This document shows, piece by piece, positions 2,112 to 10,449 of a stretch of 64,000 nucleotides of DNA. The notes beneath the pieces were generated by a model that did no database searches, was not told where the DNA came from, and worked only from the letters and a program-made list of their open reading frames with translations. This stretch comes from Nitrospirota bacterium. GTDB lineage: Bacteria > Nitrospirota > UBA9217. A program made the translations under genes and the position numbers. How positions within the stretch are numbered: the first letter of the stretch is position 1; the number at the start of each line of letters is the position of its first letter. The stretch spans positions 2,208,001-2,272,000 of the forward strand of contig CAWFSF010000006.1 of the NCBI GenBank assembly GCA_963818475.1, read 5' to 3'.

Positions 2112-2354
2112 TTATTGCGCGCTCGCGCAAAAGTACTTCTTAAACAACAACTCTGAACGCTGCGCCGCTTCCGTCGTAAGCGCAACAGACTTAGCCTTGG
2201 ACCGGGGATCGCTGACAAGACCTTTTTCATGCAACCGATTCATCGTTTCCCAGTCAAAGCCCTTCCAGGCGCGCTCTTCGCCTTCCCTGCCGTGCATGAC
2301 CAGATACAGAAGAGCGAGCGTCATTTCGTCGACCTTGTCCTTGTCATATTCCAT
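2112..2354 (-). CDS. DUF6429-family small protein
   Basis: MEYDKDKVDEMTLALLYL...RAWKGFDWETMNRLHEKG...KAKSVALT signature; GGAG RBS. Confidence 0.8.
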   Translation of the reverse strand: MEYDKDKVDEMTLALLYLVMHGREGEERAWKGFDWETMNRLHEKGLVSDPRSKAKSVALTTEAAQRSELLFKKYFCASAQ

Positions 2355-2583
2355 GGCACACTCCCTGGCAACAAAGAATGATTTACAGAGTATGAGATTA
2401 TCCGCTGAATACATTTTCAGAATAGCAAATTGGAGCGAGGGTGTCAAACTGAGCGAGTTTCCGAAGTGTGGTAGAAAAAGATTTTTATTGAATAAGAGGT
2501 GGCTCGCCACGTGTCAACGTCCCCTATGTTCTTGTAGTCCGCCAGATCTCGGAACACCAAAATAAAAGACGTGACCCTATAAT

Positions 2584-2731
2584 TCTTGTAAGAGCCCTTC
2601 GTATGCGATGCCTTTTACATCAGCGCTCATCACCGACCAGTTTTCCTTATCGATCAGGTCGACAACAAGCCGCCGCAGCTTTGAAGGGTACTGGAACTTG
2701 TTCTGGGATTTGTTGAAGATCAGGCCGAGCA
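2584..2731 (-). pseudogene. hsdM: Internal fragment of type I R-M methyltransferase HsdM
   Basis: LGLIFNKSQNKFQYPSKLRRLVVDLIDKENWSVMSADVKGIAYEGLLQ matches the HsdM N-terminal region; no start or end. Confidence 0.75.
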
Positions 2732-2764
2732 AAATCAATACCTCCCATGTTGATCAATTACAAG

Positions 2765-3496
2765 CTATATCGGCTTTTTCTTTCTTCTTTGGATACCCCT
2801 TTTACGTTTCGCAATTTGACTTTTTTCATAATCATCATATTTTCTAGTTTTTAAATTAGTTTTTGTGGTTTCAATTTGCCTATAGTGTTTGTTAAAATCG
2901 CGCTCGAATGTTGGAAGAGACACCACTAAGTCATGTATAATGTCCGACAGTTTATTCACAAGATTGAACTTAAATTGGAGCGATAATAAGTTTTCAAGAT
3001 TGATCAGTCTATATTTTTCCGTTTCAATATCGCTATTATCGCTATTGAAGGGATATATCCATTGCCCATGTGCAAGTTTATTTCTAATTTCTATTATCAA
3101 CCTCAATTCGTTACTAAGAAGATCTGAGAGAGAACTATACTGGGCATACGCCGTAAATGGGATCGTAGTGGAATCGAGGTGAGCATGGGGGACGTTATAA
3201 TGTTTACGAAATGCAATTTCGATAGCTTTTTGCCATTGAATAAGCTGTGCATCTTGACTTAAAATCCGTTTTCTCTCATCTGGCGTGTAGCCTCCCTTTT
3301 CAAAAAGAAGCTTTCTTAGGCGTGTTTCGGCCCAAGCACCTATCAAAAAAGAAAACAGCCTAACAAATGATGCTGTGGCAGGCTGATTTTCATCTGAAAT
3401 CGCTCTGCGTGCAGAAAGAGCAGCATTTTGGATTGCTATCTCTATAGAGCGGAGATTTTCAACATGATACTTATATGTTTTTTCGTCGGTTAAAAT
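2765..3496 (-). CDS. HEPN-motif (RxxxxH) protein, putative RNase toxin/effector; start uncertain
   Basis: Frame open upstream of 3346 to ATT at 3496 (about 243 aa; ATG 3521 is off by 1 nt); helical; IIEIRNKLAHGQW motif. Confidence 0.7.
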   Translation of the reverse strand: MLTDEKTYKYHVENLRSIEIAIQNAALSARRAISDENQPATASFVRLFSFLIGAWAETRLRKLLFEKGGYTPDERKRILSQDAQLIQWQKAIEIAFRKHYNVPHAHLDSTTIPFTAYAQYSSLSDLLSNELRLIIEIRNKLAHGQWIYPFNSDNSDIETEKYRLINLENLLSLQFKFNLVNKLSDIIHDLVVSLPTFERDFNKHYRQIETTKTNLKTRKYDDYEKSQIAKRKRGIQRRKKKPI

Positions 3497-3523
3497 TGCA
3501 GCCCTTTTCTCTCGATTTCATAT

Positions 3524-3565
3524 CGCCAAAAAGCACTTAACAATAATATTAAATGCCCTTTGGCG
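3524..3565 (-). terminator. 19-bp hairpin containing a terminator-like stem with U-run
   Basis: CGCCAAAGGGCAUUUAAUA-UUAU-UGUUAAGUGCUUUUUGGCG; all 19 positions pair (4 G-U), which favours the minus strand. Confidence 0.7.
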
Positions 3566-3631
3566 GTAGGGAATCGAACCCCCACTATACTCTCACCTTT
3601 CGGCAAGCGTGTTTCCATTACACCATCGCCC
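3561..3631 (-). ncRNA. tRNA-like RNA with anticodon loop replaced by a GAAA tetraloop
   Basis: GGGCGAUG-GUGU-AAUGGAA-ACAC-G-CUUGCC-GAAA-GGUGAG-AGUAUA-GUGGGGG-UUCGAUU-CCCUAC-CGCCA: D-arm with GG, canonical T-loop, GGCG/CGCC acceptor-like stem; starts at the predicted +1. Confidence 0.7.
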
Positions 3632-3637
3632 GAAAAC

Positions 3638-3666
3638 ATTATACCAAGCCAGTCTATCATTGACAA
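3638..3666 (-). promoter_or_regulatory. sigma70 promoter for the tRNA-like RNA
   Basis: TTGTCA-17 nt-TATAAT with extended -10 TG; +1 predicted at about 3631. Confidence 0.75.
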
Positions 3667-3806
3667 CTTCTTATTAGAAATAATTCGTTTTCAGTATATT
3701 CATATTGTATAAAGAAGATAATAACGACTTCCCTGGTGCGCCTGTAGCGGCGGTTGAGAGCTCCAATACCGAAACCTACCCCCACCCACCCCAACCTCCT
3801 ACCGCC

Positions 3807-3862
3807 TAGTTCCCTATTTATGAACTTTTATTATTGACTTTTATTGGGAACTACTATAATAT
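3807..3862 (+). promoter_or_regulatory. higBA promoter with candidate inverted-repeat operator
   Basis: TTGACT (3834) and TATAAT (3855)/TAATAT (3857); inverted repeat TAGTTCCC (3807-14)/GGGAACTA (3846-53). Confidence 0.55.
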
Positions 3863-3906
3863 AGCTCTTATGAAAGACTATACCTTCAAACATGCAAAGG
3901 ACTTCC

Positions 3907-4191
3907 ATGGTACTAGTTGGTCGAGAGAAGCTACGGCAATTCACTAATGAACATGCAGATGCACGTGGTTGGATAAATACGTGGATTGCAGAAACAAGAG
4001 TTGCTCAGTGGAAGAATCCCTCAGATATAAAAAAACAATATTGTACCGCGAGCCTTTTGGCAGGTACTGTTGTTATATTTAATGTTAAAGGGAACAGTTA
4101 TCGCCTAGAAACACAGGTCGATTTCAATGCCGGCGCCATCGCCGTAAAGTGGATTGGAACGCATGCTGAATATACCAAACGATATAGATAA
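3907..4191 (+). CDS. higB: HigB-family mRNA interferase toxin
   Basis: W..P.DIK..Y..AS...VIFNVKGNSYRL...KWIGTHAEYTK. Confidence 0.9.
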   Translation: MVLVGREKLRQFTNEHADARGWINTWIAETRVAQWKNPSDIKKQYCTASLLAGTVVIFNVKGNSYRLETQVDFNAGAIAVKWIGTHAEYTKRYR

Positions 4192-4201
4192 AGGGATTAC
4201 G

Positions 4202-5423
4202 ATGATACCTAAAGTTATTGACACTGATAAAAAATATCGGGAAGCACTCGCAGAGGTTGAGCGGCTTATCGCAATTAGTCCAAAACCAGGAACAACTGAT
4301 GCAGATCGATTAGCGCTTTTAGCGACCCTTGTTGAAGTATATGAAACTAAGCATTATCATTTTGAGATGCCCACTCCTATTGAATCAATACGTTTTCGAA
4401 TGGAAGAACAAGGGTTAATGCAGCGAGATTTAGTTCCATTTATAGGCAGTAAAAGCAAGGTTTCCGAAGTTTTGTCGGGCAAGCGACCTCTTACTATCCA
4501 AATGATTCGTGCGCTAAATGCGGGATTAGGTATTCCTGCTGAAGTCTTGTTGCAGGAACCTCAAAAAACAAAAGGGACCAAATGCACTGATGTCGAAATA
4601 GATTGGCAAAAGTTCCCCATAGTAGAAATGGTTAAGCGCGGTTGGATTGTGACCAGAAGTCAGAATTTGCAAGATGGATCAGAAGAACTAATGCAAAAGT
4701 TTTTTTCACCACTAGGTGGTACGATTCCCGCTGCGGCTATTTGTCGCCGCACAATACATGAACGTTCTAGCACGGAGATGGATAAATATTCGCTTATTGC
4801 CTGGACAACGCGCGTACTGATCCGATCAAATGATGTCAGTTGTTCTGGAGAGTATAAACCAGGGACAGTTACAAAAGATTTTTTAAAAGAAGTGTCTCGC
4901 TTAAGTTGGTTTAAGCAGGGCCCTCATTTGGCTCAAGAATTTTTGGCTAAAAATGGCATTGCAATTATAATCGAACCCCACTTGCCTCAGACACGTCTTG
5001 ATGGCGGGGCGATGCAAACAAAAGATGGAAGACCAGTTATCGGCCTCACTCTAAGATATGATCGTATCGATAACTTTTGGTACACACTTCTACACGAGTT
5101 AGTACATATTGCTAAACATTTGAAAACGGGAGATGATGCATTTGTCGATGATCTTGATACTGAACAACAGGATGATCCACAGGCAGAGAGAGGCAGATAG
5201 AATTACGCGGGAAACATTCATTCCACGATCTGTCTGGATAAGAAGCGATGCGTATCTAAAAAGAACTGAGCAAGCAATCAAAGACCTTGCCGAAGAACTT
5301 CGAATACATCCGGCAATAGTGGCTGGTAGAATACGTCAGGAAACCAGGAATTATGCACTTTTTCATGAATTAATTGGACAGGGCGAAATTAGAAAATTTT
5401 TTCCTGGATACAAATGGAATTAG
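4202..5423 (+). CDS. higA: HigA-type HTH antitoxin fused to ImmA/IrrE metallopeptidase (frameshift near 5185)
   Basis: PTPIESIRFRMEEQGL..DL...SKSKVSEVLSGKRPLT HTH; RYDRIDNFWYTLLHELVH (HExxH); C-terminus EREAD..HPAIVAGRIR in ORF 5133..5423. Confidence 0.85.
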
Positions 5424-5434
5424 GAGAGCAAGCA

Positions 5435-6508
5435 ATGTTCGACCACAAACATTATGTCCCAATTCTTAAAGCGAAGGAAGGTGAATTTGGCGCTCTTTCT
5501 GAGCTTACAGAAAAAGTAAAAAAGCAAATTACACCCGTGATTGACATATACAAGGAGGACAATTCCGGTAAGGCACTGGACGTTTATCTTCATAAAATTG
5601 GGAACAAAATACTTTCTTCATGGGGAGATACTCACCCCATCTTCGTAGACCTTTTCGGAATTAACTTAAAGGACCGCGTTTCAGATGGGAGCCATCCATT
5701 GACGTATCTATTTGATCACCTTCGAACGATTAAAGTTAAGGCAATTCCTTTAACAGGTTTTGATCGTGATGAAGCCTACAACGAAGCCTTGTCGAGTATA
5801 ATAAAAAACGATGAAATGGGTTTTTGTGTTCGCATCTTAGCCGACGATATGGTGGACACTGATGATCTTTCGGACAACCTGAATACGCTGCTGGTTGACT
5901 TAAATGTTGCTGAAAAAAGTATTCATTTATTGCTTGATTTCAGAGAGCTGAAAATCGACAAAGTTCCTTGGGCGGTGGCCACTGCGATTAACACAATCAA
6001 CAATCTACCTTCAGTCAATACCTGGAACACGCTCACGGTCGCGGCGTCCGGTTTCCCAGGTTCACTTGCTGATGTTGGTACGCAATCAGTGAAAAAAATA
6101 CCTAGGACTGAATTTCTCTTATGGAAAGCGCTATTCGGTCGAAAAAGTGAAATTAACAGGATGCCTGCTTTTGGCGACTATGGAGTTGCTCACCCGGATC
6201 TCTTGAGTCTGGATTGGAGAAAGGTCCGACTCGTACCTAATGTACGATATACTCTGCCAACAGAATGGTTAGTTTTGAGGGGTGGAACTAACAAAAAATA
6301 CGGAAGTAAGCAGACGCATAAGCTTTCCGGTGATCTTGTTAAAATGAGCGAATATTATGGTGAAAGTTATTGCTGGGGAGACAACTATATTAAATCATGT
6401 GCAGGGGAGAACATAGGACCTGGGAATATGAGCACATGGCGGAAAATCGGAACCAATCATCATCTTACCCTTGTTGCTTCACAGATCGCCATTGCTGCCG
6501 TTTCTTAA
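5435..6508 (+). CDS. Beta-family protein (P4 beta-like)
   Basis: HYVPILKAKEGE, ASGFP, FGDYG, VRYT, WGD, WRKIGTNHHLT motifs; GGAG RBS right after the higA stop. Confidence 0.85.
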   Translation: MFDHKHYVPILKAKEGEFGALSELTEKVKKQITPVIDIYKEDNSGKALDVYLHKIGNKILSSWGDTHPIFVDLFGINLKDRVSDGSHPLTYLFDHLRTIKVKAIPLTGFDRDEAYNEALSSIIKNDEMGFCVRILADDMVDTDDLSDNLNTLLVDLNVAEKSIHLLLDFRELKIDKVPWAVATAINTINNLPSVNTWNTLTVAASGFPGSLADVGTQSVKKIPRTEFLLWKALFGRKSEINRMPAFGDYGVAHPDLLSLDWRKVRLVPNVRYTLPTEWLVLRGGTNKKYGSKQTHKLSGDLVKMSEYYGESYCWGDNYIKSCAGENIGPGNMSTWRKIGTNHHLTLVASQIAIAAVS

Positions 6509-7043
6509 TCCTATTTCTTACTTCGCAACGCAATTCCTTAAGAGGCAAGCGCGATATAATGCGATCCCACAATACATCTCGAGGTTTGCTAACAATTCCT
6601 TTATGTAAGTTTCTTTCCTTTAGAATTTCAAGAGCTTCTTCTCGCCACAACAGTTGAACTAGTGCTTTCGGATCGATAGCGGTATTTTTTCTACAAAGAC
6701 GAACGTCCACCAAATTGATCTTTCCGTCGCTGTATTGCGCTTCCTTTAGCCCCCACCACTTTGGCACCTGCCTTCTTATCTCTGCAACATGGCATGAACT
6801 AGCGACAACTGTTACACAATCAAATATTTTACAATAAATATCTTGTTGGGCAGATAATCTATTTAAAGTATCTCGTTCGCTTTTGATCTCATATCCGTGA
6901 ATTGAACCATTAATAACTGCAAGATCGACGCGTGAGTCGCCTTGGCATAACCCGAGCTCTTCTATAATCAATGTATCAATATCATCATTGTATTTTTTTT
7001 GAAGAGTTAACAGCAAAAGTTTTCTGATATCGATGTCGCGCAT
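6465..7043 (-). CDS. sce7726-family PD-(D/E)XK-like protein
   Basis: IIEELGL...RVDLAVING..HGYEIKSERDTL.RL..Q...Y; PKWWG; QLLWREEAL. Confidence 0.85.
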   Translation of the reverse strand: MRDIDIRKLLLLTLQKKYNDDIDTLIIEELGLCQGDSRVDLAVINGSIHGYEIKSERDTLNRLSAQQDIYCKIFDCVTVVASSCHVAEIRRQVPKWWGLKEAQYSDGKINLVDVRLCRKNTAIDPKALVQLLWREEALEILKERNLHKGIVSKPRDVLWDRIISRLPLKELRCEVRNRIKKRQQWRSVKQQG

Positions 7044-7208
7044 GTATCCTTTGTCATTTTTGCTTCTTAATTTCAATTTTTTCTCGTTGTGTTAAGTGAT
7101 TGGATTATAGGTACTGTACACTTTATTGTCAATAGCAGAAAGCAGGCATCCTCTCCAATTGGATAGTGGCATCAACCGGCCGAGGTGGCTGAGCGCGAGG
7201 TTAGTCGC

Positions 7209-9087: not shown

Positions 9088-10449
9088 TTATTCGTGCTTG
9101 AGAAGTCTTTCAAGATAATTACTTCCATGCACCTTAGAATAATTCAGCAATTCCCTACGGACTTCGTCAGGAATTTCATCCTTTCTTTCACACCAGGTTC
9201 GTGATGCGTCCCATGAAGTTCCATAGATTTGTCGTCCTTCCGGGTCCATAAAAAGTGAAACATCGTCTAGCCTGTCGCTGAGGTATCGCAATAGTGACGG
9301 ATGCGTCTTTTCGAAGGGCAGATTAATCAGTATATCCAGCAGCACATTCAGATAACGATCATAATATATAAAACCACCACTACTTCTTGCCCGCGTCCAT
9401 ATTGGATCTAAGACTGAATTCAAAAAATTTATAAGTGTGTGTACATCATAATATCTTGGGAATGAGCTTAGGGCATTGATAAGCTTTTGCCTCGCATTTG
9501 GATTCTCGGCAATTAGCTCTGCTCTGTGTTCTGGCGTTAGCAACCTCTTTAATTTCTTTTTAGCTTTCTGCTGATCCTTTATTGATTCCTTGATTACATC
9601 GCGAACTTCTTCGAGAAAATCGCATATATCTGATATTTCGATAATAACCTCACCGCTATCACCCACATATGGTTCTATCTTTGCATTTTTATTAACATAT
9701 AAAGCTTGCACAACTAACGCTTGATATTTTTCACTAGTCAACCGGTGCTTATCTTTAAATGTACGCGACCAATCAACAGCTGCCTTAACATTAATATCAC
9801 CAAGGCTATAGCCCAACATCAGTGTAGTTGATTCTGTCATCAGTAAATTTAGTTTAAGCTGGCGATACTCTGTTGGACCCATTAAGTTAATGTAGTCTGA
9901 TTCTGTAACCACTATGCTCGTTGGCGCTCGTCTATGTCCATGTAGATGGTAAATTGGCACAAAATCTGATCGTTCATTAAGGAGATGTTCGGGCAGAAGA
10001 TAGACGGAATTAAGTATAGCGTCTTCTAATAGAAAGTCATAATTGGTTGTAATAATCCACTGCATAGGAATGTCACGAAAAATATCACGGTACTTATCAG
10101 ATTTTCGTTTGTCCGGCTTGAGGTCACAAATCTTACAGATCGCTCGCTTCAATTTACCTTCGGCTTGTTCATGTGATAGGTTCAAGCTTTTTTTCTTATC
10201 GGCCACCTTGATCAAACTTACAATTTCCTGAGCTATGCGTGGATATGATTTTCCCTTGACCGCCTTAATATCGTTCAAGTTAAACTTGATCTTAAGCTCT
10301 TTGCAAATTGCTTTCAATAGCTCATCAAAACTAGGAGCTTCATCATTGGTCATATCCTTAGAAAAGCCTGTACCGACGAATAATCCGAACGATCCGAATA
10401 AGGCTGCATTCGAAATTTCCAACAATAATTTATCTCTTGTCCACTTCAT
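9088..10449 (-). CDS. SIR2-family (SIR2_2) protein, putative NADase defence effector
   Basis: GLFVGTGFS, IITTNYD, YHLHG, LGYSLGD motifs; uncharacterised helical C-terminus. Confidence 0.9.
   Translation of the reverse strand: MKWTRDKLLLEISNAALFGSFGLFVGTGFSKDMTNDEAPSFDELLKAICKELKIKFNLNDIKAVKGKSYPRIAQEIVSLIKVADKKKSLNLSHEQAEGKLKRAICKICDLKPDKRKSDKYRDIFRDIPMQWIITTNYDFLLEDAILNSVYLLPEHLLNERSDFVPIYHLHGHRRAPTSIVVTESDYINLMGPTEYRQLKLNLLMTESTTLMLGYSLGDINVKAAVDWSRTFKDKHRLTSEKYQALVVQALYVNKNAKIEPYVGDSGEVIIEISDICDFLEEVRDVIKESIKDQQKAKKKLKRLLTPEHRAELIAENPNARQKLINALSSFPRYYDVHTLINFLNSVLDPIWTRARSSGGFIYYDRYLNVLLDILINLPFEKTHPSLLRYLSDRLDDVSLFMDPEGRQIYGTSWDASRTWCERKDEIPDEVRRELLNYSKVHGSNYLERLLKHE

Follow-up and report, generated by a model that had tools for sequence, protein, structure and literature searches.

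A tRNA-like leader RNA with two covarying folds upstream of a predicted HEPN ribonuclease gene: a possible type III-like toxin–antitoxin module

What does an RNA shaped like tRNA, yet unable to decode, do between a promoter and the gene of a predicted endoribonuclease? The question is raised by a 64,000-nucleotide stretch of a Nitrospirota genome (assembly GCA_963818475.1, contig CAWFSF010000006.1, positions 2,208,001 to 2,272,000; hereafter the window), in which a non-coding RNA lies immediately upstream of such a gene, both apparently served by one promoter as judged from consensus and spacing. A preliminary description of this DNA had proposed that the RNA is a tRNA decoy restraining a HEPN toxin. 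The features under study, in window coordinates and in order of transcription, are the following.

3661..3666, minus strand: -35 hexamer TTGTCA, matching the consensus jointly with the -10 hexamer at 11 of 12 positions
3638..3646, minus strand: extended -10 element TGg TATAAT (hexamer 3643-3638), with a 17-nt spacer to the -35 hexamer
3561..3631, minus strand: tRNA-like RNA domain of about 70 nt, with 4-bp acceptor, D arm, capped stub, 6-bp T arm and A3561
3627..3630, minus strand: acceptor 5' strand GGCG, pairing with CGCC at 3565-3562, which A3561 follows
3609..3623, minus strand: D arm GUGU-AAUGGAA-ACAC (helix 2 of the covariation test)
3592..3607, minus strand: stub at the position of the anticodon arm, CUUGCC-GAAA-GGUGAG, 6 bp with a GAAA cap (helix 3)
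3566..3585, minus strand: T arm GU(G)GGGG / UUCGAUU / CCCUAC, loop 3578-3572, G3583 bulged
3528..3561, minus strand: inner hairpin AAAGGGCAUUUAAUA-UUAU-UGUUAAGUGCUUUUU, made of A tract, stem and U tract, terminator-like, recognized by folding and as helix 5
3514..3527, minus strand: 3' strand of the alternative helix, GGCGAUAUGAAAUC, pairing with 3562-3575
2765..3496, minus strand: HEPN-like gene, 243 codons plus stop, probable start ATT at 3496, AAGGG 5 nt upstream
3068..3085, minus strand: codons for RNKLAH, the Rx4H motif, with R, N and H the same in all 70 aligned homologs

The near-consensus, extended -10 promoter was found where it had been placed. This sigma-70 element (3666-3638) was the best of eight promoter-like sites within 2400-4300, a region for which shuffled sequence gave a mean of 4.5 sites. 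From its consensus and spacing, transcription of the leader would start at about 3631-3630. Among the relatives, a -10-like hexamer ended 4-10 nt before the first acceptor base at 44 of 69 loci, with a mode of 7 nt, compared with 23 of 69 in a control window.

The cloverleaf of about 70 nt described earlier is present with its D arm, UUCGAUU T loop and GGCG/CGCC-A end; comparison with relatives corrected the T stem, which consists of six pairs plus the bulged G3583. The RNA scored 102 bits against a covariance model made from its relatives. Folding of the leader gave a minimum free energy of -51.8 kcal/mol (z -5.6), a stability equalled by none of 200 shuffles; in this fold the acceptor stem is open, because the inner hairpin shares the CGCC acceptor strand. 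The RNA is present as a single copy, no tandem repeats being found in 3500-3640. As the preliminary description had noted, the anticodon loop is replaced by the GAAA-capped stem, and in line with a non-decoding RNA, ARAGORN called no tRNA in the window. The Rfam comparison that it had recommended was run with release 15 at E ≤ 10 and gave nothing significant: in the window no family reached its gathering threshold and RF00005 had no match, and the matches in 3300-3900 came down to mascRNA (14.6 bits), a tmRNA T-loop fragment of 13 nt, and look-alikes of microRNA hairpins that fell on the long hairpin. A 58-aa ORF running across the RNA (3490-3666) was rejected as a protein, since the stub differs in length among relatives by numbers not divisible by three, and the frame that the closest homolog reads through here is another one.

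Linkage of the RNA to the gene was assessed at 85 loci retrieved by protein similarity. Five were uninformative, three being N-terminally truncated gene matches (L004, L005 and L060) and two lying so near a contig end that just 2 and 30 nt precede the gene (L017 and L051). The RNA was present at each of the remaining 80, all with an intact gene 5' end and sufficient upstream DNA, as would be expected if homologous genes share it. It was also found upstream of distant homologs, namely L131 (29% identity) and those of a Rhodococcus plasmid (31%), a Raoultella plasmid (24%) and a cyanobacterial plasmid (48%), and upstream of a second paralog that the genome of the window carries (42% identity). 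RNA and gene occurred together in two viral-contig copies, L097 and L128, which were the only full matches of RNA-first pattern scans of viral contigs; neither these scans nor E. coli yielded an orphan RNA lacking the gene. The other viral matches were real tRNAs or members of a different phage tRNA-like family, and L104, a stub-anticodon look-alike of 47.6 bits with no gene, was discarded as an orphan copy because its folding energy does not stand out from that of shuffles (z -0.47). Two side observations concern phages: many odd tRNA-like genes are carried by phages in the viral collection, and the D arm of the present RNA is identical to that of phage tRNA-Gln genes.

The tRNA-like fold was tested for covariation in 72 sequences and 29 pairs, using shuffles and slid partners as controls and ignoring kinship. 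Of all cells, 94.1% were paired, versus 80.1% in shuffles and 44–54% with slid partners, and compensatory change on both sides was observed in 23 of the 29 pairs, a count reached by none of 500 shuffles. In the acceptor (helix 1), of 4 bp family-wide, all four pairs changed on both sides and 97.6% of cells were paired; the second pair of the D arm was UA in 51 sequences and AU in 19; all six stub pairs were compensatory, with loop and length differing among relatives; and the T arm (helix 4), whose stem has 6 bp family-wide, was 99.8% paired with four of six pairs compensatory. Across the 72 sequences the T loop was invariant, the G18/G19-like GG and the A14-like A of the D arm were invariant or almost so, and the elbow set as a whole (D-loop GG, T loop UUCRANY, U8/A14-like bases) was invariant or nearly. 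The 7-bp acceptor and 5-bp T stem of a genuine tRNA are absent from the family. ARAGORN called a tRNA in 30 of 71 relatives, 17 of them with a two-base 'anticodon' and 13 with six different amino-acid identities. The tRNA model RF00005 (cut-off 29) passed in L131 (35.9 bits) and L082 (34.2 bits), the only matches at Rfam gathering thresholds among 15 relatives.

Could the element be an ordinary tRNA gene in decay, or an att remnant upstream of a mobile gene? Such an origin would explain the tRNA-like T and D arms, the two relatives that pass RF00005 and the D arm shared with phage tRNA-Gln genes. It leaves unexplained the conservation of element and gene in register, which extends over several phyla and to proteins only 24% identical, the 23 compensatory pairs, the covariation of the downstream strand as well (see below), the position of the promoter at the first base of the element and the inconsistent or missing 'anticodons', and we give it next to no credence. 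Judged by sequence, the RNA is neither a decoding tRNA nor a decayed one, as the strong covariation in particular indicates.

The domain is followed by the inner hairpin, helix 5 of the covariation test, which was 95.3% paired. Its three outer A-U pairs, which involve the U tract, were kept in 70, 67 and 67 of the 72 sequences, in contrast to freely covarying neighbour pairs, a pattern that fits a terminator. The terminator-like hairpin reported earlier is thus present as a hairpin, but its terminator character is less clear: it shares the CGCC acceptor strand, a terminator scan of 2400-4300 returned no sites, and the U run after the stem counts five in the window (3532-3528; about 3–5) before GGCGG. 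Three of the 72 relatives (L055, L072 and L076) lack the hairpin, so that there the RNA would exist solely as a 5' UTR unless processed.

The preliminary description had overlooked an alternative helix that links the tRNA-like fold to the ribosome-binding site. The segment 3562-3575, made up of the 3' strands of acceptor and T stem together with part of the T loop, can pair instead with the strand at 3514-3527. Family-wide, this 14-bp helix was 83.7% paired versus 31–48% in slid controls, and nine of its 14 pairs were compensatory; among them, a T-loop base covaries with the downstream strand (UA in 34, AU in 17 and UG in 10 sequences), variation that the cloverleaf leaves unexplained. Since the 3' half of the tRNA-like domain pairs in either fold and the alternative helix covaries, the leader is two-state: its two covarying folds exclude each other, and in most relatives one of them hides the ribosome-binding site. 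The long-hairpin state was the more stable in 69 of 72 sequences, by a mean of 10.7 kcal/mol. Of 68 loci whose start could be identified, 56 have the Shine-Dalgarno region or start codon in or just after the helix, the start codon being no more than 7 nt beyond it. The three relatives that lack the inner hairpin keep the complementarity between T loop and start region, as read by eye. In the window copy 11 of the 14 positions pair, three being mismatched, and the helix ends 17 nt before the putative ATT start, with the ribosome-binding site beyond it. The leader is a new structured-RNA family with two covarying folds, absent from Rfam.

The gene assigned earlier to 2765-3496 holds as a frame, and homologs begin at about the position of ATT 3496, but a canonical start codon is missing: the open frame spans 3517 to the stop codon at 2765, its first ATG, GTG or TTG is TTG 3346, and an ATG at 3522-3520 is out of frame. 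Weak expression or decay of the window gene may therefore be possible. Together with the three mismatches in the alternative helix, the absence of a usual start near the conserved N-terminus would be expected of a dying pseudogene in which the function of the family has been lost. We consider this improbable: the frame of 243 codons is unbroken and keeps all invariant residues, AAGGG precedes ATT 3496 by 5 nt, the closest homolog (P0003, 68% identical) keeps its frame likewise without a nearby Met, and both the near-consensus promoter and the 102-bit RNA are preserved.

The HEPN identity put forward for the protein is supported, in the sense of HEPN-like, by the Rx4H motif, the ranking of folds and a predicted dimer. 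The structure model was all-helical and compact (pLDDT 97.2). In a full structure comparison the top rows were mostly HEPN proteins, at Z 5.4–7.5, which is below the level specific for helical bundles; Foldseek gave no match in the PDB at E ≤ 0.001, returning only helical noise of talin, bestrophin and BAR type. Pfam found in the window protein no HEPN match, no AbiV match and no recognizable extra (sensor) domain, and the hits from Pfam, NCBIfam and PADLOC were set aside as not meaningful (DUF6753, E 0.06; LIC13081, 18.5 bits versus a cut-off of 185; Cas13a, E 0.012). Of ten homologs searched with Pfam, one passed HEPN_RiboL-PSP (29.1 versus 28.4 bits), six more matched it below threshold and none matched AbiV. 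A homodimer was predicted, as a model only, with a score of 0.85 versus 0.01 for the best control; the mark applied is reached by 20 of 30 proteins solved as homodimers and by one of 23 solved as monomers. The runs had at least 98% of contacts in common and a partner pLDDT of at least 90, and placed the motif (residues 138 and 141-148) in the interface. The pass may reflect likeness to HEPN dimers already solved.

The protein family comprises 410 clusters at 50% identity, occurs in at least five phyla, on chromosomes, plasmids and prophages alike, and matches the phage protein family phrog_12663; it was found in 3 of 64 genomes of the window's order. The family is directly testable, since a cultured species, Serratia rubidaea, and two complete E. 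coli genomes carry intact copies. The location in a defence hotspot was borne out, PD-Lambda-2 A, B and C adjoining the module and a SIR2-like gene lying 6 kb away. Among 727 flanking ORFs at 73 loci no conserved partner gene was detected, the largest cluster covering three loci, which leaves the RNA as the only conserved partner of the small protein.

The nearest precedent for such a pair is AbiV of Lactococcus, a HEPN RNase (Rx4-6H) reported to be inhibited in vitro by the upstream abiV2 RNA, which it does not cut; the system is called 'type III TA-like', abiV2 measures about 296 nt and overlaps abiV1, and rRNA is degraded (bioRxiv 10.1101/2024.05.05.592566). In both cases a HEPN RNase, known or predicted, has an upstream RNA as its sole partner. 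By contrast, no tRNA-like fold is described for abiV2, whereas the present RNA is tRNA-shaped and the present protein has no Pfam AbiV match. The claim that no system like this had been described needs qualifying: nothing in the literature searched matches the tRNA mimic, but a HEPN RNase restrained by RNA from just upstream is reported for AbiV.

The order promoter, RNA, hairpin and RNase gene, with no conserved protein partner, fits a type III-like module. The explanation we favour, as quite possible though short of probable, is that the locus is a type III-like toxin–antitoxin or abortive-infection module whose antitoxin is a tRNA-mimic RNA. A constitutive promoter would start the transcript at the first base of an RNA with an L-shaped tRNA body. 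The small dimeric RNase would recognize tRNA-shaped RNA, and the leader RNA, an uncleavable mimic of its substrate, would bind the dimer and hold it inactive. RNA could be kept in excess over protein in two ways, part of transcription ending at the hairpin and read-through transcripts forming the long hairpin with their Shine-Dalgarno region buried. A drop in the supply or integrity of the RNA, for example upon phage shut-off of host transcription, would free the longer-lived RNase to cut tRNA or other RNA and stop growth. This is supported by the strict linkage of RNA and gene, the selection on the tRNA-like fold of an RNA that does not decode, the lack of a conserved neighbour gene, the HEPN features and predicted homodimer, the kept U tract of the terminator-like hairpin with the alternative helix as a means of dampening toxin synthesis, the AbiV/abiV2 precedent, and the defence and phage context.

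Several observations argue against an RNA antitoxin. Tandem repeats, as in ToxI, AntiQ and further antitoxins of type III, are missing from this single-copy RNA; the terminator is a weak one and the inner hairpin is absent in three of 72 relatives; viral contigs and E. coli contain no RNA-only copy; and the window copy has its three helix mismatches and a helix ending 17 nt before ATT. On full-length mRNA the alternative helix unfolds the tRNA-like domain, which a cis switch predicts and an antitoxin does not require. As to the target, AbiV, the HEPN precedent, is reported to cut rRNA rather than tRNA.

The main rival, which we regard as unlikely on balance, is that the RNA is a purely cis-acting leader, either a protein-binding 'riboswitch' or an autoregulatory operator based on molecular mimicry. 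The tRNA-like fold would be the ON state of the ribosome-binding site and the long hairpin its OFF state; a factor recognizing the elbow, for instance a tRNA-binding enzyme of the host, a protein of phage origin or the HEPN protein, would hold the tRNA-like fold and license translation, and in its absence the hairpin would close. The toxin would then be controlled through synthesis only, the RNA not neutralizing the protein. Covariation of both folds, including the T-loop base, agrees with this, as do the placement of Shine-Dalgarno region or start codon in or just past the helix at most loci, the complementarity of T loop and start region kept by relatives lacking the inner hairpin, the empty terminator scan, and the preference for the hairpin by some 10.7 kcal/mol, which implies that the ON state needs a stabilizer. 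However, a bare sequestering hairpin needs no complete tRNA body with an invariant elbow, and the near-invariant A/U tract would have no role in a purely translational switch. A partnerless small HEPN RNase would moreover be left without post-translational restraint, the AbiV precedent favours direct inhibition by RNA, and a candidate ligand is lacking. The layout, the conservation and the HEPN-like protein partly support the tRNA-decoy proposal of the preliminary description, and of the outcomes that it had named as refuting, the three examined did not occur. Given the helix linked to the ribosome-binding site, however, the support for regulation in cis is no weaker than that for a decoy acting in trans.

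The two-state design, the position in a defence island and the conserved tRNA elbow would also suit an RNA that is a sensor or substrate rather than an inhibitor, one that reports when tRNA-shaped RNA is damaged or attacked in an infected cell, and the many odd tRNA-like genes carried by phages in the viral collection would be in keeping with it. Cleavage by a phage or host nuclease, binding by a phage tRNA-handling protein or self-processing by the HEPN protein would remove or capture the tRNA-like domain, flip the leader and alter toxin output. Yet, on the folds described above, a leader that loses its tRNA-like shape has its ribosome-binding site closed, which would lower toxin, not raise it, and the reading is wholly inferential, with neither a phage partner nor a cleavage site to point to; we hold it to be very doubtful. 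Somewhat less doubtful, though still improbable, is a tRNA-shaped 'interlock', which would be a new class of RNA device, in which the same domain of about 70 nt would be both inhibitor of a tRNA-directed HEPN RNase and translation-licensing switch. Only transcripts with a properly folded or already occupied antitoxin domain would yield toxin, and attack on, titration of or a stop in supply of tRNA-shaped RNA in the infected cell would release the RNase.

Close known arrangements include the type III loci ToxIN, AbiQ-AntiQ (summarized in the AbiV preprint), CptIN and TenpIN, whose tandem-repeat antitoxins are cut by the toxin into pseudoknotted units; to our knowledge, none of the known type III toxins is a HEPN protein. 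These loci share with the present one the order promoter, RNA, hairpin, endoribonuclease gene, the lack of a protein antitoxin and a defence or mobile context, and an excess of RNA over toxin is expected here too. The present RNA differs in being a single tRNA-shaped domain without repeats, and its leader has, in addition, an alternative helix burying the ribosome-binding site. The leader of E. coli thrS, a translational operator, mimics the anticodon arm of tRNA-Thr. Both RNAs are tRNA look-alikes in a 5' UTR beside the ribosome-binding site, with autogenous control as a possibility, but thrS mimics the anticodon arm whereas the present RNA keeps all but the anticodon loop and has a competing covarying helix. 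In the type I toxin mRNAs hok and tisB, the ribosome-binding site folds back on a distant upstream segment. An inert full-length mRNA is likewise predicted here, without antisense RNA or a small hydrophobic toxin, and with half of the tRNA-like domain as the sequestering strand.

The mascRNA and MEN-beta tRNA-like RNAs come from eukaryotes, where RNase P and RNase Z release them. They share with the present RNA a cloverleaf with D and T arms, a short anticodon arm and a longer host transcript; the match to mascRNA (RF01684, 14.6 bits versus a threshold of 42.5, E 5.1) is not significant. Among HEPN proteins, several of HepT-MntA, HepS, ApeA and PrrC/RloC cut tRNA anticodon loops, and they are restrained by a nucleotidyltransferase antitoxin, a partner enzyme or the sensing of phage proteins. 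A HEPN-like helical core, the Rx4H motif, a dimer (here predicted) and a defence context are common to all, but the present family, unlike these, has no conserved protein partner. In the literature searched on HEPN proteins, tRNA-like RNAs, type III and abortive-infection systems, defence islands and structured-RNA candidates, the RNA is not described; for PMC11090510, PMC3710099, PMC10690425, PMC5737381 and PMC13092281 this applies to the article text.

For genome annotation, the family carries a warning, as ARAGORN and the Rfam tRNA model sometimes call its elements tRNAs with arbitrary anticodons. If the RNA neutralizes the RNase, it would be, as far as the literature searched shows, the first tRNA-mimicking RNA antitoxin and only the second RNA known to hold a HEPN toxin in check; it would also show what keeps small HEPN proteins of a widespread family that lacks annotation from doing harm. 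If the domain both inhibits the protein and licenses its translation, a tRNA mimic would be the infection sensor of a one-gene immune system found across many phyla. Whatever its function, the leader is a natural case of a tRNA body serving as a regulatory domain.

The module is read from the minus strand of the window and comprises a promoter, a 70-nt cloverleaf (3631-3561), a hairpin and an HEPN-like gene (2765-3496), with the following features ahead of the gene:

3666-3661, minus strand: -35 element TTGTCA, 17-nt spacer to the -10
3643-3638, minus strand: -10 element TATAAT with a TG motif; with the -35, an 11/12 match
3630-3627 with 3565-3562, minus strand: acceptor stem GGCG/CGCC, 4 bp
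within the cloverleaf, minus strand: D arm, GUGU-AAUGGAA-ACAC
within the cloverleaf, minus strand: stub, a 6-bp stem capped by GAAA, at the position of the anticodon arm
between stub and T arm, minus strand: linker of 6 nt
within the cloverleaf, minus strand: T arm with the canonical loop UUCGAUU
3561-3528, minus strand: inner hairpin (A-tract/stem/U-tract), directly following A3561

The element is a tRNA body without decoding function. ARAGORN found no tRNA across the whole window, and Rfam searches of the region at E ≤ 10 returned solely hairpin noise, mascRNA (14.6 bits) and a tmRNA T-loop fragment. Forced to assign an anticodon, ARAGORN called 30 of 71 relatives as tRNAs, 17 with two-base anticodons and 13 as His, Leu, Gln, Arg, Thr or Asp; the Rfam tRNA model was passed by 2 of 15 relatives. 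Stubs among relatives span about 3–7 bp, with caps including GAAA, GAGA, GCAA, GUGA and UUCG. The cloverleaf unable to decode that the preliminary description had proposed is thus borne out by its parts and by the two-base or mixed anticodons of relatives.

Conservation of this structure was assessed on 72 distinct sequences, aligned to a covariance model. Paired cells in the cloverleaf and inner hairpin reached 94.1%, versus 80.1% in column shuffles and 44–54% with partners slid, in an alignment fitted to the tested structure and with shuffles that ignore relatedness; slid controls and an unfitted MAFFT alignment gave the same pattern. Changes on both sides occurred in 23 of 29 pairs, with 299 compensatory cells, and 0 of 500 shuffles reached any measure. 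Compensatory pairs included 4/4 of the acceptor, 6/6 of the stub and 4/6 of the T stem. The D-loop GG, the A14-like A, the U8-like U and the T loop were invariant or nearly so, indicating that the tRNA elbow is kept.

Linkage was examined in loci gathered by protein similarity alone, five from species genomes and the best 80 of 326 from metagenomes. The RNA element lay upstream of the gene in 80 of the 85; three RNA-less loci hold truncated genes, with matches starting at query residues 44, 107 and 32 (L004, L005, L060), and two are contigs that extend just 2 and 30 nt upstream of the gene (L017, L051). The element also precedes homologs of 41% and 29% identity in related genomes (79.3 and 49.5 bits), a 48% homolog on a cyanobacterial plasmid (49.9 bits), a 31% homolog on a Rhodococcus plasmid (22.7 bits, structure judged by eye) and a 24% homolog on a Raoultella IncFII plasmid (25.1 bits), and both viral-contig copies found RNA-first carry the gene after it. 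A second complete module resides in the window's own genome (contig C5, 765579-765703, of G000), where an 80.3-bit tRNA-like RNA (L117:1501-1625, minus strand) with fully covaried stems (acceptor GGAG/CUCC, D stem GGCG/ACGC) precedes an HEPN paralog, 42% identical and with a GTG start (L117:771-1496, minus strand). Homologs therefore carry the upstream RNA, and covariation together with linkage to the HEPN gene contradicts an origin from a decayed tRNA or att site. Named hosts are Campylobacterota, Gammaproteobacteria, Verrucomicrobiota, Cyanobacteriota and Actinomycetota; within the window's own order the gene occurs in 3 of 64 genomes. No conserved neighbour was found among 727 flanking ORFs, the largest cluster covering 3 of 73 loci.

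Viral contigs also yielded other tRNA-like sequences. In 22 of 30 contigs hit by the D-arm pattern (L086-L115) a different gene was found (e.g. L086:2404-2479), with a 7-bp acceptor, encoded CCA and a 6-nt anticodon loop (NUUCCA), labelled 'tRNA-??? anticodon (tc)' by ARAGORN and directly followed by an ORF, without an HEPN gene; it may be an unusual phage tRNA. A stretch of a 335-kb viral contig (L104:6663-6724) has a tetraloop-capped stub replacing the anticodon arm and scores 47.6 bits to the model (positions 8-66), with no HEPN gene nearby and folding no better than shuffles (z -0.47).

The HEPN-like gene has an uninterrupted reading frame between 3517 and its stop at 2765 (minus strand), which includes RNKLAH and has no ATG, GTG or TTG ahead of 3346. 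Starts of homologs align at ATT 3496, which has AAGGG 5 nt upstream; because this start is non-canonical, functionality of the window copy was treated apart from that of the family. The stretch 3496-3522 (minus strand) also holds an out-of-frame ATG (3522-3520) and an in-frame AGG (3505-3503) near the relatives' ATG. The closest homolog, P0003 (68% identical), likewise has no Met close by, and the ORF call for it runs through the RNA.

Pfam, NCBIfam and PADLOC gave nothing significant for the window protein. A word-indexed search placed 651 proteins, among 1165 candidates, in its family at E ≤ 0.001, and an exhaustive search gave 410, 257 and 88 50%-identity clusters at E ≤ 0.001, 1e-10 and 1e-30, respectively. 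A strong match was obtained to phrog_12663, a phage protein family without assigned function, one homolog is named 'MAE-28990/MAE-18760-like HEPN' by one source, and one of ten homologs passed Pfam HEPN_RiboL-PSP (29.1 vs 28.4 bits), with others falling slightly under. N14, W88, R138, N139 and H143 were invariant in 70 aligned homologs. The AlphaFold2 model is all-helical (pLDDT 97.2), and exhaustive structure comparison ranked HEPN proteins at the top (Z 5.4–7.5), which for a helical bundle amounts to enrichment and is not proof. Rows titled HEPN were an HEPN toxin with MNT, an AMPylated HEPN toxin, AF_0298, ST0689 and 4nqf; other top rows, which we take to be HEPN folds, were Roquin, YutE, TT1696, HI0074, SO_3166, the AbiA C-terminus, HepS and Csm6. 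A homodimer was predicted with a score of 0.85, versus 0.01 for the best control; among proteins of solved structure, 20 of 30 one-chain pairs and 1 of 23 single chains attained the mark set by the homodimer. Between runs at least 98% of contacts agreed, partner pLDDT was at least 90, and R138 and residues 141-148 lay in the predicted interface. As HEPN dimers have already been solved, this prediction shows likeness rather than binding. The HEPN assignment made beforehand was favoured by the invariant R/N/H, the structure ranking and the predicted dimer, but not by Foldseek, which gave zero PDB matches at E ≤ 0.001; the window protein is regarded as a candidate HEPN-type RNase.

The module lies in a defence island, with these neighbours:

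3892-6508, plus strand: PD-Lambda-2 A/B/C, complete set, A being HigB-like (E 1e-38 to 2e-134)
6465-7076, minus strand: cII-like PADLOC match
9088-10449, minus strand: SIR2-like/SIR2-domain protein, PDC-S25/ThsA-like
from 13.6 kb: housekeeping scpA and scpB

A 53-aa ORF (2577-2738, minus strand) closely follows the HEPN gene; its only match is weak and TcpC-like (E 0.005), and it may be a gene fragment. Beyond it a DUF6429 protein is encoded (2112-2510, minus strand). A G/C-skewed 10-nt tandem repeat (AACCCACCCC, 2.4 copies; 3773-3796) occupies part of the interval that divides the higB-like gene from the divergent HEPN-module promoter. An intact module of E. coli NH-21 is found in a Qin-like prophage region, after IS1, its gene annotated 'hypothetical protein' and its RNA unannotated. 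The Serratia module was matched in 298 of 5426 complete E. coli genomes, as a whole module in only 2; the other E. coli matches listed cover the 3' half of the gene only (query 443-836), unannotated or adjoining IS1, and are a widespread remnant.

The promoter described earlier was the region's top-scoring promoter-like site, and the cloverleaf opening GGGCG begins seven bases after TATAAT. In 44 of 69 loci, versus 23 of 69 for a control window, a -10-like hexamer ends 4–10 nt upstream of the acceptor's first base, the distances peaking sharply at 7 nt (26 loci); this spacing is evidence, short of proof, for a transcription start at the 5' base of the tRNA-like domain, as had been predicted. 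For the terminator-like hairpin, the hairpin itself and a retained U tract were confirmed, but the tract has only 3–5 U and a terminator scan of the promoter/leader region reported none. The three outer A-U pairs are A-U in 70, 67 and 67 of 72 sequences, with adjoining pairs covarying freely, a constancy probably reflecting selection for the U tract of a leaky intrinsic terminator; three relatives lack the inner hairpin.

Beyond the inner hairpin, GGCG (3527-3524) pairs with the acceptor CGCC as the outer part of the hairpin, and the free-energy minimum therefore opens the acceptor (z -5.6). The inner hairpin is followed by a 14-nt strand (GGCGGUAAGGAAUC in many relatives) whose reverse complement takes in the 3' strands of the acceptor and the T stem together with part of the T loop. 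Scored over the 72 sequences on the cloverleaf alignment, in columns that the model took as unpaired, this alternative helix had 83.7% paired cells versus 73.2% in shuffles and 31–48% when slid, with both-sided changes in 9 of 14 pairs; one pair uses a T-loop base (UA:34, AU:17, UG:10), a variation unexplained by the cloverleaf. Middle-strand changes are matched in both partners (GGCG/CGCC/GGCG versus GCCG/CGGC/GCCG or AGGG/CCCU/AGGG), and since both folds covary, selection on both pairings is indicated. Nearest-neighbour energies favour the long hairpin over the cloverleaf by 10.7 ± 6.2 kcal/mol and do so in 69 of 72 sequences, the three exceptions being the variant without an inner hairpin. 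Of 72 loci, 68 have an assignable canonical start codon; its median distance past the helix is 4.5 nt (interquartile range 2–7), with 56 of the 68 at 7 nt or less, so that the Shine-Dalgarno region falls within the helix 3' strand. The window copy forms 11 of the 14 pairs, and its putative AAGGG-ATT start lies 8–17 nt past the helix, implying weak occlusion. A leader acting solely as a cis-acting switch, its tRNA-like state held by a putative tRNA-binding factor, would account better for this helix and worse for the U tract and for the absence of restraint on the protein; this main alternative is considered rather unlikely.

Any explanation has to accommodate a partnerless small dimeric candidate HEPN RNase, an obligatory promoter-proximal RNA with a full tRNA body minus the anticodon loop, a probably leaky stop signal between RNA and gene, and a helix by which, on predicted energies, full-length mRNA would be translationally closed at equilibrium. 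We tentatively favour a type III-like toxin-antitoxin or abortive-infection module, in which the leader RNA would be an uncleavable substrate mimic holding the RNase, and termination together with occlusion of the ribosome-binding site would hold protein levels low compared with those of the RNA; a role of the RNA as sensor or substrate seems improbable. In the literature searched, the sole experimental precedent is AbiV/abiV2, which resembles the module in combining an HEPN RNase with an upstream non-coding RNA, there reported to inhibit the RNase (bioRxiv 10.1101/2024.05.05.592566). PADLOC holds no model for the module and Rfam no family for the RNA, and the literature searched, supplementary lists aside, yielded no description of a tRNA-like RNA linked to an HEPN gene. 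We class the module as a candidate RNA-controlled toxin module, in which what is new is the RNA family and the two-state design.
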